Below, piece after piece: positions 15,926 to 26,800 of a stretch of 26,800 nucleotides of DNA; within the stretch, counting starts at the first letter, position 1; each line of letters starts with the position of its first letter. The translations under genes and the position numbers were made by a program. Source of the stretch: a virus (lineage: Duplodnaviria; Caudoviricetes); IMG/VR virus record IMGVR_UViG_3300030095_002559, positions 1-26,800 of that record; one strand, written 5' to 3'. The notes under the pieces are model-generated. The model did no database searches. It was not told where the DNA came from and saw nothing but the letters and a program-made list of their open reading frames with translations.

Positions 15926-16543
15926 TTAGCCCAAATTTAATTCATTCAAGCACTCGGGCTCACCGATTAGACCAGAAATAAAAGTATTAAAAGCTAAACT
16001 TATTCTAGTATTAGTTCCTTTTTTTGCTTCTACTTGATGAAGTGTGCTTGAGGGAAACATAACTAAATCACCCGTGCCAACATGAAACCACCACATGTGA
16101 GAGTTCCAAAGATTATAGTTTTCTACTTCAGGACTAATTTGTTGGTATTCTGATTTTGTGAATTTAATTTTGTCATTGTTAATATCACAATCAAAATATA
16201 AGACACCTGAAACAAATGAATTTGGATGTGAGTGCATATGATGAAATTCATTTTGTTCTGTGTAATTAAGCCAAGACTGAGTTATTCTAATATCTATTTT
16301 ATTTTTAGGACAGATAATAGTATCTATATAATTTTTGCAATGTCCTTCTAAAAAACTTTTTATGTTTTTAAATTCTTTTCTGTTTAATATATAATTGTCT
16401 TTTGTATTAATATTACCATTATTTTTAATACAATAATTTTTTTGTTCTTTTGCAAATAATAATTCTTGATTTGTAAAATCTCTGTCTATTTTTGTTTTAT
16501 AAACTGGTATGGGAAAAAGACTATGTATTGTTGGCTGTTCCAT
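15926..16543 (-). CDS. Putative 2OG-Fe(II) oxygenase (TIGR02466-like, HxH type)
   Basis: LFPIPVY start, SWLN, HSHPNSFVSGVLY, GDLVMFPSSTLHQV, RISLAFN. Confidence 0.85.
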   Translation of the reverse strand: MEQPTIHSLFPIPVYKTKIDRDFTNQELLFAKEQKNYCIKNNGNINTKDNYILNRKEFKNIKSFLEGHCKNYIDTIICPKNKIDIRITQSWLNYTEQNEFHHMHSHPNSFVSGVLYFDCDINNDKIKFTKSEYQQISPEVENYNLWNSHMWWFHVGTGDLVMFPSSTLHQVEAKKGTNTRISLAFNTFISGLIGEPECLNELNLG

Positions 16544-17116
16544 TTAAAAAACCCAAGATACTAGAGAGTATCTTGTTCCTTTTGTTACTGGTTTAACTAA
16601 ATGTGGATATAAAAATATTGATGGAAAAAGTAAAACATCTCCAGCTTTAAATTTTATTTCATGATCATCAAACAATATAAACTCACCGCCTTGATAATCA
16701 TCATTTAAAACTCCAACAATACTTAAAAACGGTATTCCTTTAACTTGACCATCAAATATACTGTGGATGTGATCATTGTGTTTAGCCATAGACTGACCTT
16801 CACTATATCTATTAAACCTAATTTTACTAAAACCTTTCCAACCACCAAAACTTTCTCCACCAATTTTATCAATTACAACATATCTTTCTATCGCTTTCCA
16901 TATATATTCATGCAATTCTTTATTATAAGTAAGATTATCACTAGTTAACATATCAAGTTCTTTCTTTCCATGTACATCACTTTCTGCATCATATGTTCTG
17001 ACATTAGTCCATTTATGTCTTAACCAATCTTGTTTATCGAACTCAATTATAGTTTTTTCTAAGATATTTTTAGGAATCCAATTATCTAATTGTAGTATGT
17101 AATCTTTTAAATTCAT
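16544..17116 (-). CDS. 2OG-Fe(II) oxygenase, prolyl-4-hydroxylase-like
   Basis: RFNRY...HND (HxD)...LNDDYQGGEF...FPSIFLYPHLVKPVTKGTRYS. Confidence 0.88.
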   Translation of the reverse strand: MNLKDYILQLDNWIPKNILEKTIIEFDKQDWLRHKWTNVRTYDAESDVHGKKELDMLTSDNLTYNKELHEYIWKAIERYVVIDKIGGESFGGWKGFSKIRFNRYSEGQSMAKHNDHIHSIFDGQVKGIPFLSIVGVLNDDYQGGEFILFDDHEIKFKAGDVLLFPSIFLYPHLVKPVTKGTRYSLVSWVF

Positions 17117-17599
17117 TTAAAAATAATTAAAGTTTATATTAAATCTTGCTTTTTCATCTGTGCAGTTTGTGCTGTTGTGTTCAACTGATGGGTCAAAAAA
17201 TAAAGCTCTGTTAGCTTTAGATTCTATTTTTTTATCTCCTATAACTGTATAACCATTACAATCATTTAAACTTAATATTAAACCTTTGTGCTCATACTTA
17301 TAATCAGTATGTGGTTTATGATAAACAATTTCATCTGATCTTGGATAACAATTACCTTTAACTCTTATTAATGCTTTTAAATTAATTTTTTTAAACACAG
17401 GTTCTAACACATAAAAATGATCGCTATTTATTGTATTTTTGTCGTAGAACATATGAGTAAAGTATAATGATCTTGGTTCATTTTCTTCATCTTCAGCAGA
17501 AACGTTTTGCTGATAAAACCAAGAAAAATGCCAATTTATTACTTTGTCTTTTATATTATTAAAATCTGTAACGTTTAAAAAATTATCAATTACTTCCAT
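17117..17599 (-). CDS. Small 2OG-Fe(II) oxygenase-like protein (probable start MEVIDNFL at 17599)
   Basis: VIDNFL start, HTD (HxD), NRALFFD...EHNS...RFNINFNY; AGGAG SD just before ATG 17599. Confidence 0.75.
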   Translation of the reverse strand: MEVIDNFLNVTDFNNIKDKVINWHFSWFYQQNVSAEDEENEPRSLYFTHMFYDKNTINSDHFYVLEPVFKKINLKALIRVKGNCYPRSDEIVYHKPHTDYKYEHKGLILSLNDCNGYTVIGDKKIESKANRALFFDPSVEHNSTNCTDEKARFNINFNYF

Positions 17600-18186
17600 G
17601 GTTCTCCTAAAGTCCATACAACTAGACTATATCTAGTGCCACTAATTACAGGTTTTATTCTATGCCAAACAAAAGAGGGAAATATTACTATAGACCCTTG
17701 TGTTTTTATTTCATCACACACTCTTATATTATTTTCTGGTCTATTTTTAAAATCAAACTCCAGTTCTCCACCATCGTATTCATTTTTATCATTAAGTAAA
17801 ATTGTTAAAGATAGTTTTCTTTGTTTGTTTACAATTGTTTCATCTTTATGTTGTTTTATTCTATCTGTAACACTATCTGTGTGCCAACCAAAAAAATGAT
17901 CTTTATTATAAATTGTAAACTGTGTTTTTTCAAATGTATGCCATTCAAAATTCCATTCAGCGTTATGATTAGCGTAATTAATATATGGTCTTAAATCATC
18001 ATAAATAAATTTTTGATCTAACCAAGAAACATCACAATCCCTGTTTTTACCAAGTATGTTTTTTTGATTAGCATCATACACTTTAGCTTTTTCTTTCGTA
18101 GCACTTAAACCTAAATTCATAACTTTATTACACCAATCTTTCGATAGAGCGTCTTTAAAATAATAGTAATAATTGCTTAGTTTCAT
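17590..18186 (-). CDS. 2OG-Fe(II) oxygenase, PKHD/prolyl-hydroxylase-like
   Basis: QFTIY...WHTD...RKLSLTILL...YDGGELEF...FPSFVWHRIKPVISGTRYSLVVW. Confidence 0.9.
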   Translation of the reverse strand: MKLSNYYYYFKDALSKDWCNKVMNLGLSATKEKAKVYDANQKNILGKNRDCDVSWLDQKFIYDDLRPYINYANHNAEWNFEWHTFEKTQFTIYNKDHFFGWHTDSVTDRIKQHKDETIVNKQRKLSLTILLNDKNEYDGGELEFDFKNRPENNIRVCDEIKTQGSIVIFPSFVWHRIKPVISGTRYSLVVWTLGEPWK

Positions 18187-25466: not shown

Positions 25467-25495
25467 AAAATTAAATGTGGGGCCGAAGCCCCACA
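25467..25495 (-). terminator. Rho-independent terminator with cUUCGg tetraloop
   Basis: Minus strand TGTGGGGC-TTCG-GCCCCACA followed by TTTAATTTT, just after the stop of 25507..26061. Confidence 0.85.
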
Positions 25496-25506
25496 CTAAT
25501 TATTTA

Positions 25507-26061
25507 TTACGCTGCAAATGCAAATGCACCTGTAGTAGCGTCTGCTGCGCCACCCATTTTAGATGCAATGTGCCATGTTCCTTTTTCATAACAAATGAAA
25601 GCAATCATGCTTCCTGTTGTGAATAAGTTTGTAGCTGCGTTTGCTGGTGTGAAAACTAATTGTGTTTCACCTGCAGTTGAAATATCAAAATCAACCTCTG
25701 CTGTAGCTCTTGATTCAATTACTGAACCTGTAGCCCAAACATCAGAACCTGCTGCATTAAAAGTTAATGTAGATGTTCCACCAGTTGTGTCTTTTGCTTG
25801 TGCATAAACTACGATAGTTCCTTGCGTTGCCGCAGGTAACGTACAAGCAGCTGCTGCTGCACCTGTGTAGTTTACAATTGATATAGTGTCTGCTGCTAAT
25901 GTTAAACTAGCACCTGTTGCTACATCTGCTTTTGATAAACCAGTTAAGTCAGGCATACCTGAACTCATTCTAGTTGTTATTGCTCCCGTAGTTGCATTTT
26001 TAGTTGCAACTTGGAAACCTTTTTCCGAACGGACTGGTCCGTTAAACGTTGTACTTGCCAT
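25507..26061 (-). CDS. Putative minor capsid/decoration or head-fibre protein (184 aa)
   Basis: MASTTFNGPVRS start; Ala/Thr-rich beta composition; has its own promoter, AGGAGG SD and terminator. Function inferred from position near the capsid gene. Confidence 0.55.
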   Translation of the reverse strand: MASTTFNGPVRSEKGFQVATKNATTGAITTRMSSGMPDLTGLSKADVATGASLTLAADTISIVNYTGAAAAACTLPAATQGTIVVYAQAKDTTGGTSTLTFNAAGSDVWATGSVIESRATAEVDFDISTAGETQLVFTPANAATNLFTTGSMIAFICYEKGTWHIASKMGGAADATTGAFAFAA

Positions 26062-26140
26062 AATTATATCCTCCTAGTTTCCGAACATAGTCTCTAGGCC
26101 GTCGACTATACGCGTCTATGTTCTAATTAATTGTATAGTG
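26062..26140 (-). ncRNA. Candidate cis-regulatory pseudoknotted 5' leader RNA
   Basis: Three perfectly complementary pairs: ACTATAC/GTATAGT, GAACATAG/CTATGTTC and CCTAG/CTAGG, the last overlapping the AGGAGG SD. Confidence 0.6.
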
Positions 26141-26145
26141 ATTAA

Positions 26146-26174
26146 TTTATATAGTAGATTTATGTAAAGCGCAA
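26146..26174 (-). promoter_or_regulatory. Sigma70-like promoter
   Basis: TTGCGC (26174-26169), 17 nt, TATAAA (26151-26146); predicted TSS near 26140-26139. Confidence 0.6.
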
Positions 26175-26222
26175 GAGGGCCTGTAGTGTGGATTGGATTT
26201 TTCCAACGATGTAGCTTTTTTA

Positions 26223-26450
26223 TTAAGTAGCTACAGAAACTTGAGGAGCGGCAGCTTCTATTTTAATCTCTGCATCAGCTTTTTCTGCTTCTGCTAGTTT
26301 GATCTGGCTAATAACCTCTCTGACTTTTCTGTCAATCTTAACCATATCCAGAGTATATTTACCCTGTTTAAGATGCTCCTGCTCCCATTGAAGATCTAGT
26401 CCCTTCTTTTGTGTGTAAAGGGTCTCCAGATGTTGCATTATCGCCTCCAT
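26223..26450 (-). CDS. Small coiled-coil hypothetical protein (start at 26450 or 26438)
   Basis: MEAIMQHLETLYTQKKGLDLQWEQEH...; GAGGAGG precedes 26450 and GGAGG precedes 26438. Confidence 0.7.
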   Translation of the reverse strand: MEAIMQHLETLYTQKKGLDLQWEQEHLKQGKYTLDMVKIDRKVREVISQIKLAEAEKADAEIKIEAAAPQVSVAT

Positions 26451-26640
26451 TAATAACCTCCTCATAGGTTATTCTGTTAACTCTTGGATCCATCATTTCT
26501 CCAAGATACTCCCATTTTATATCAGATTTTCCCAATCTGTCAATAATAGCATTCTCTATGCCTTCTGCGGAGTCTTCTGATTCTACTGTGAAATCTGCGT
26601 GATATTGATAAGCGTTAATTTGAACTCTAAATTTTTTCAT
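26368..26640 (-). CDS. Small hypothetical protein (90 aa)
   Basis: MKKFRVQINAYQYHADF...; GGTGAG SD-like sequence; follows the capsid terminator. Confidence 0.7.
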   Translation of the reverse strand: MKKFRVQINAYQYHADFTVESEDSAEGIENAIIDRLGKSDIKWEYLGEMMDPRVNRITYEEVINGGDNATSGDPLHTKEGTRSSMGAGAS

Positions 26641-26701: not shown

Positions 26702-26800
26702 TTACGCACCTTCTACACCGAAGATACCTCTAGGGTCTGATACTCCAAATGAGTATCTTTCTCTAGCTTTGTATCTTACGTTGCCAGTGTCGAAATCACC
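26702..26800 (-). CDS. Major capsid protein, C-terminal end (partial, not in track)
   Basis: GDFDTGNVRYKARERYSFGVSDPRGIFGVEGA*, a typical HK97-fold capsid C-terminus, followed by a strong hairpin. Confidence 0.88.
   Translation of the reverse strand, partial: GDFDTGNVRYKARERYSFGVSDPRGIFGVEGA

Follow-up and report, generated by a model that had tools for sequence, protein, structure and literature searches.

A leader of about 70 bases stands at the front of a probable capsid-spike message in a 26.8-kb virus record (hereafter the window, by which we mean the whole stretch of DNA analysed). The leader has a doubly knotted RNA fold that is real and conserved, and it is a more elaborate form of a catalogued orphan RNA, Mu-gpT-DE, which represents the simplest form of the same core. 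The leader ends at the translation initiation region of a single gene family and probably controls the amount of spike protein made.

Setting and architecture of the leader

The leader lies on the minus strand, as do the genes, sites and hairpins placed below, and is 82% identical to its counterpart in Pelagibacter phage HTVC027P and 73% identical to that in phage 023Pt_psg01. The gene order is common to the window and both phages (capsid, two small ORFs, leader, a gene of 170-184 aa, terminator), and the 3' end of the major capsid gene, which is cut by the window edge (26702..26800), has 28 of 32 residues (88%) identical to HTVC027P gp59. Together, the leader matches, the common gene order and this capsid fragment suggest that the window comes from an HTVC023P-type pelagiphage. 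The two small ORFs (26368-26640 and 26223-26435) overlap in different frames and lie between capsid and leader in the window's clade only, the second of them terminating in a conserved VSVAT-stop. Across the stop codon of the small ORF preceding the promoter there is a 6-bp hairpin (26211-26234, GUAGCU/AGCUAC), whose 5' arm motif recurs in 95 of 180 distinct upstream regions; it appears invariant rather than covarying, and it was left out of the evidence. Elsewhere, within the structural region, are four consecutive short genes (15926-18186) that by eye resemble 2OG-Fe(II) oxygenases. At four related loci (L334, L337, L346 and L380) the phage region sits in genomes filed as Alphaproteobacteria, Thermoplasmatota, Pelagibacteraceae and Flavobacterium, which probably reflects infection or mis-binning (genes were read for L346).

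The first-pass annotation had described three perfect helices, A, B and C (7, 8 and 5 bp), interleaved as A-B-A'-C-B'-C', and both the sequence and the helices were found exactly so in the window. The 5' strand of helix A (26133..26139), whose first base is the predicted +1 as had been claimed, pairs with A' (26105..26111) to form the first pseudoknot; helix B joins 26116..26123 to B' (26083..26090); and strand C (26094..26098) pairs with C' (26073..26077) to form the second pseudoknot, C' overlapping the first three bases (AGG) of the Shine-Dalgarno (SD) sequence AGGAGG at 26070..26075. Dinucleotide shuffling of the leader gave no interleaved 7/8/5-bp set in 3000 trials, and among 2674 window tiles two contain one, the leader itself being one of these two, which excludes a chance origin. 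The plain folding energy is ordinary (z 0.1 to 0.5 on the leader strand), as expected of a program that ignores pseudoknots. As a separate observation, four-base palindromes are over-represented in the pseudoknot loops (26106-26111 and 26094-26098 in the window, and in relatives; 16/26 and 15/34 types against ~6 expected) and in helix B (24/68 against 15 expected), the types in each case being kin; they could permit dimers or simply be the trace of new helices arising by duplication.

Upstream of helix A, a predicted -35 box (TTGCGC, 26169..26174, from its sequence pattern) and a predicted -10 box (TATAAA, 26146..26151), the latter 17 nt past the former and 6 nt before helix A, make up the sole match on either strand to the pattern TTGCGC-17-TATAAA (26174-26146), which a generic promoter scan did not list. 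Of 220 knotted leaders, 168 have such a -35/-10 match, which in 148 lies precisely 6 nt upstream of helix A; the -35 box reads TTGCAC or TTGCGC in 132 of the 168. Behind the spike gene stands a terminator-like hairpin with a UUCG loop (25474..25497), the same hairpin being found in HTVC027P. The promoter and UUCG terminator earlier ascribed to the gene are both there, as predicted promoter-like boxes and a hairpin. RNA-seq of HTVC027P has the gene at the same position, gp62, as a well-expressed late gene, with mean TPM in the last three columns of 12786, 22241 and 28568, the same columns giving 3198, 6216 and 9428 for gp63, 10371, 33390 and 74585 for the capsid gene, and 8271, 20718 and 36186 for the upstream gp61 (PMC12753301). 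The drop from gp62 to gp63 fits the terminator; since gp61 reaches a level similar to gp62, these data do not prove a separate promoter.

Covariation and the GAC junction

We evaluated the fold in an alignment of 60 leaders (53 distinct), selected through the protein that follows them or through its N-terminal codons, with the two cultured phages added. Among the 53 distinct leaders, pairing holds in 99.3% of 1207 cells and two-sided change occurs at 15 of the 23 pairs; 0 of 500 shuffles reach any of these measures, and slid registers pair just 19-50%. Helix A shows such change at 5 of its 7 pairs and helix B at all 8. This comparison of regions upstream of homologues, proposed as a check in the first-pass annotation, found helices A, B and C to be conserved, with A and B covarying within the alignment. 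Helix C is 96.5% paired there with no two-sided pair, five GGAGA-type leaders being misaligned at this point, and its support comes from a wider set of 224 knotted leaders. These contain 39 C helix types, and the C loop pairs over at least 5 bp with its own flank for 83% of 52 loop types as against 19% for swapped flanks, so strand C varies along with the SD region; the A loop likewise pairs with its own flank in 26 of 26 types as against 7.5% when swapped. Unfiltered helix B cells (567 cells, 81 distinct helices) include 38 G-U and 2 A-C, an excess that identifies the structure as RNA of the leader's strand. The leaders are kin, and the counts are of cells rather than independent events.

The core of the fold had been missed on first reading: three GAC triplets pair in a ring, creating a three-way junction to which each strand contributes a single unpaired A and which includes two mini-hairpins, D and E. 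The first GAC (26114..26116) closes helix B with its G, leaves its A unpaired and opens mini-hairpin D (26103..26114, with 26114-26113 paired with 26104-26103) with its C; the second (26101..26103) closes D with its G, leaves its A unpaired and pairs its C with the G of the third GAC (26090..26092), which we call pair E. The short loop of D is A', which pairs with the 5' end, and that closed by pair E holds strand C, which pairs with the ribosome-binding region. Evaluating the junction pairs, we found the G of the first GAC and C of the third to be GC in 244, AU in 10 and GU in 1 of 255. The C of the first and G of the second, set by the parser in the wide set, pair in 53/53 of the unparsed alignment. 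Pair E is CG in 253 and UA in 2 of the wide set, and CG in 51 and UA in 2 (L082 and L256) of the 53 distinct leaders, the evidence here being two compensatory cases. The inner pair of mini-helix D is GC in 38, CG in 9 and UA in 6 of 53, the three junction A's are invariant in both alignments, and the junction letters are far less variable than the helices. Loci L207, L233, L285 and L313 represent a third form, in which the D loop is extended to 10-13 nt and seemingly still pairs with the 5' end.

A small self-cleaving ribozyme had been among the functions suggested for this RNA. HDV-like ribozymes have a nested double pseudoknot with a 7-bp P1 from position 1 and a 2-bp P1.1, and the leader resembles them in its nested double pseudoknot, its 7-bp first helix and an adjoining 2-bp helix, its strand order A-B-D-A'-D'-B' paralleling P1-P2-P1.1. 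It differs from them, however, in having neither P3/L3 nor a P4 hairpin on inspection against the HDV consensus (which puts the catalytic C in J4/2) and no Rfam ribozyme hit; moreover, the conserved promoter already accounts for the 5' end, and relatives without helix A retain the core. We regard self-cleavage as the least probable of all the explanations considered.

One gene family and the relation to Mu-gpT-DE

Anchoring a scan on the N-terminal codons of the downstream gene alone, we recovered 120 loci, 118 of them with enough flank. A strict GAC core stood before 113 of these 118 same-family genes; among 2360 shuffles it arose in 22, and among the 27 leaders within the window in 1. Conversely, anchoring on the RNA gave the same gene downstream for 113 of 113 leaders with enough flank (112 by pattern, one with a variant N-terminus), and an RNA-anchored scan for minimal forms gave 120 loci, whose 110 distinct members with an ATG all (110/110) open the same gene family. 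Two further minimal-form leaders (L456 and L502, Mu-gpT-DE) belong to the same gene family and start at UUG; there the changed base is the one outside the proposed loop pairing. The distance from capsid match to core ranges from 42 to 792 nt (82 loci), and that from core to start codon falls into two tight groups, 14-16 or 27-44 nt; the varying capsid distance, the tight start-codon distance and the constant downstream gene place the RNA with that gene and not with the capsid gene. There is one leader copy per genome in the records searched.

Wider scans bear on whether the RNA could be a riboswitch that senses a metabolite, an ion or a signalling nucleotide, in which the GAC junction would be the pocket and helix C the platform. 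Aptamers are typically recognised by features such as those of this leader, namely a multi-stem junction, two pseudoknots, an almost invariant core and a final helix placed at the SD (criteria in PMC5737381), and marine phages carry predicted glutamine riboswitches (PMC9004378). The RNA was, however, never found before a metabolic gene: a genome pattern scan, whose matches are mostly chance, yielded 4 real leaders among 80 loci examined of the at least 120 matches listed, all four before this spike gene and the other 76 failing the helix test, and model R1, which detects near forms only and lets distant forms escape, picked up no leader in 150 further genomes of the G001 family. Of 4 loci from a metagenome scan, 1 proved to be a true leader and the other 3 do not lie before the spike gene. 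The downstream gene also suggests no ligand, and no conserved alternative fold was seen (below), which together make a riboswitch unlikely.

The downstream gene itself (184 aa, 25507..26061) encodes a conserved N-terminal stretch, MAxTTFxGPV, and a predicted beta-sandwich knob. The product is a probable capsid spike or decoration protein, and likely a spike whose anchor is fixed and whose head can be swapped. Sequence searches of Pfam and the PDB gave it no name, its one grouping being an unnamed PHROG, and tblastn against cultured phages gave no match, since HTVC027P gp62 has only the first 16 residues in common with it. In the predicted structure (pLDDT 87) the first 20 residues are of low confidence and a beta-sandwich occupies residues 40-182, which match the head domains of CBA120 TSP4 (Z 10.8, rmsd 2.3, 103 aligned), a KP1 baseplate chain (Z 9.1), a tailspike (Z 7.9) and the knob of the capsid spike gp52 of Pseudomonas phage Pa223 (PDB 9NY6; Z 7.6, rmsd 2.8, 95 aligned), with Foldseek E-values of just 0.002-0.01. 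No cement protein was at the top of these structure comparisons. Pa223 gp52 is a homotrimer at the capsid three-fold axes, held by residues 2-41 (bioRxiv 2025.06.11.659172). The window product has the knob fold in common with gp52 and TSP4 and differs from them in lacking the triple beta-helix and in its low identity (16-20%); because the best fold match is a tailspike domain, we infer the capsid location from gene position.

Across 181 complete products the N-terminus alone is held in common and the bodies fall into 31 clusters, 12 unrelated ones of which follow loops that match those of the window exactly. Acidity is general among the products (median pI 4.5, 171/181 below 6), and residues 1-16 carry little charge. 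An element that flanks so hypervariable a gene, and many of whose loops contain 4-nt palindromes, might be a DNA-level anchor for swapping the gene, or might act not as a leader at all but as a free or packaged RNA. The G-U over A-C bias and the non-nested covariation speak against both, as do the absence of a terminator between the RNA and the start codon and the way in which pairing follows the SD and AUG, and we consider this explanation very improbable.

Mu-gpT-DE (RF03012; 53 positions, typed Gene; sRNA, gathering threshold 49 bits) reportedly originates in Weinberg et al. 2017. The name does not occur in the main text of PMC5737381. Scanning with Rfam, we found nothing in the window at gathering nor at E up to 10, and nothing in 10 near relatives at E up to 1, while 9 of 40 gene-anchored loci scanned pass the Mu-gpT-DE gathering score. 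The earlier statement that this is not a named family is accurate for the window, which has no Rfam hit, but not for its core and downstream gene, which are common to RF03012. Both RNAs have the GAC-stem-GAC-loop-GAC core (three GAC triplets, the first two separated by a stem), and both follow a capsid gene of Mu-like gpT type and precede the same gene family; the capsid of one relative passes Pfam Mu-like_gpT (24.1 vs 20.1 bits), and in the window two small ORFs intervene between the gpT-like capsid end and the leader.

The two differ in their loops and outer stem. In the minimal forms, Mu-gpT-DE among them, the inner hairpin D is closed, whereas the window's inner loop pairs with the 5' end; the second loop, E, is of UAGCCA type and complementary to UGGCUA across the start codon, whereas the window's is GGCCUAGA and pairs with the SD region; and the 3' strand of the outer stem, B', is itself the SD, whereas the window's outer stem is 8 bp, with B' ending 7 nt before the SD. 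The Rfam structure line of Mu-gpT-DE shows neither pair E nor a pseudoknot; CaCoFold (preprint; PMC7657543) lists two extra covarying pairs for it. No account of the knotted form was found in the literature searched, though the supplements of PMC5737381 and the model files of PMC10690425 may contain one. An orphan Rfam 'sRNA' is here recast as the 5' leader of the next gene, with a junction pair and two pseudoknots that are absent from Rfam.

Codon 2 lends indirect support to the loop-to-start-codon pairing of the minimal forms, being GCU in 94 and GCA in 4 of 110; knotted forms have GCA in 152/224, and gene bodies contain GCU 652 and GCA 519 times. Covariation between minimal loop and codon 2 is weak (p 0.74 in a U-or-other test, with 19 of 23 UUGCCA loops facing GCU), and the 4 GCA minimal cases all have the matching loop (p 0.0015) but are partly kin. 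In a quick capsid tree, rough in that it uses partial sequences of unequal length from 75 of 255 rows, minimal and knotted forms are intermixed, nine minimal forms needing 7 changes, at least 3 of them by well-supported branches.

Possible modes of action at the initiation region

In every form the fold either stops 4-17 nt short of the AUG or pairs across it. In the window, forming helix C costs the SD 6.6 kcal/mol of pairing, energies being computed against an anti-SD string. This loss is at least 2 kcal/mol in 169 of 215 leaders and in 27 of 67 of the gene-anchored set, and below 0.5 kcal/mol in 44 of 215, with distant forms at 38 of 51. Some near forms carry a second SD beyond C', and in many forms C' stops just before an open SD. 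The covering of the SD by C', which the first-pass annotation had put forward, therefore describes the window and its clade (AGG of AGGAGG) but not most distant forms. Similarly, the alternative helix between A' and B' that was to act as the switch is present as a duplex in the window sequence and is not conserved, reaching at least 7 bp in 24 of 56 distinct near forms and at most 3 bp in 41 of 45 distant ones; no conserved alternative fold was found, A'/B' being the alternative examined. What survives of the translational switch first proposed is a double-pseudoknot leader, conserved and covarying, that reaches into the initiation region of a structural gene equipped with a predicted promoter and a terminator-like hairpin of its own; the A'/B' switch, general SD covering and the ribozyme are not supported.

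A constitutive fold would need no effector, the pairing at +1 shielding the mRNA from 5'-end-dependent decay and the knot fixing the initiation rate. Helix A at the predicted +1 (148 of 220 leaders), the frequent halt of C' just before an open SD, the acidic products and the strong late expression of the HTVC027P gene at the same position (PMC12753301) are all in keeping with it. The minimal forms, however, lack helix A and bury the SD, the leader occurs once per genome (records searched) and before one gene only where a generic stabiliser might spread, and the junction letters vary far less than the helices, so that a constitutive fold strikes us as possible but somewhat unlikely.

The reading that we tentatively favour, as a candidate, is a translational operator read by a head-assembly protein. 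The leader would be the 5' end of a separately promoted late mRNA for the capsid spike, with one loop of the three-GAC core fastening the 5' end and the other the start of the ribosome-binding region. The folded state would limit initiation by half covering the SD in the window's clade, by burying both SD and start codon in the minimal forms, and by abutting the 5' edge of the SD in other forms. The near-invariant junction would be the putative site at which a conserved head-assembly protein binds and either stabilises or releases the fold, so that spike output would be matched to capsids. The reader may be the three N-terminal arms of free spike trimers, whose symmetry fits, or equally a capsid or scaffold protein; junction symmetry and the trimeric fold relatives suggest feedback by free spike arms, and the protein body cannot be the reader because the same two loops precede 12 unrelated bodies.

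Counted in favour of the operator are the covariation, the strand bias, the gene link, the co-change of C with the SD, the codon 2 bias and the likeness of the knob to trimeric spikes; counted against it are the acidic products, the low charge at residues 1-16, the 44 of 215 leaders that lose less than 0.5 kcal/mol of SD pairing and the lack of a conserved alternative fold, and RNA and N-terminus may travel together only because domain swaps occur downstream of both. A precedent is the T4 gene 32 operator (PMC535899). The leader is like autogenous operators of this kind (T4 gene 32; E. coli rpsO) in that a pseudoknot of the 5' leader sits where translation initiates (PMC535899, PMC10690425, PMC3985624), and unlike them in that their products bind nucleic acid whereas the product here is an acidic virion protein, with no sequence or fold kinship.

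In order of preference we place the operator first, then the constitutive fold, the riboswitch, the DNA-level anchor or free RNA and, last, the ribozyme; that the RNA is a cis-acting leader in one of the first three ways is highly probable. A bolder proposal, to which we give rather low probability, is that the GAC ring is a pseudo-three-fold junction, centred on three unpaired A's, and constitutes a novel class of binding site that would receive either the three N-terminal arms of a spike trimer or a small signalling molecule. Mu-gpT-DE would then belong with the knotted forms to a single family that draws on three exchangeable expression platforms, in which the SD is buried together with the AUG, half covered or abutted.

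Pelagiphages of the HTVC023P type are reported to rank with the most abundant phages in the ocean (PMC9599517), and the presence of the leader in cultured HTVC027P makes it testable, a 70-nt RNA being also of a size that suits structure work. If the spike-arm reading is true, it would be a case of symmetry-matched feedback by a virion protein without an RNA-binding domain, and a ligand or protein partner, if found, would represent a new way to control virion assembly.
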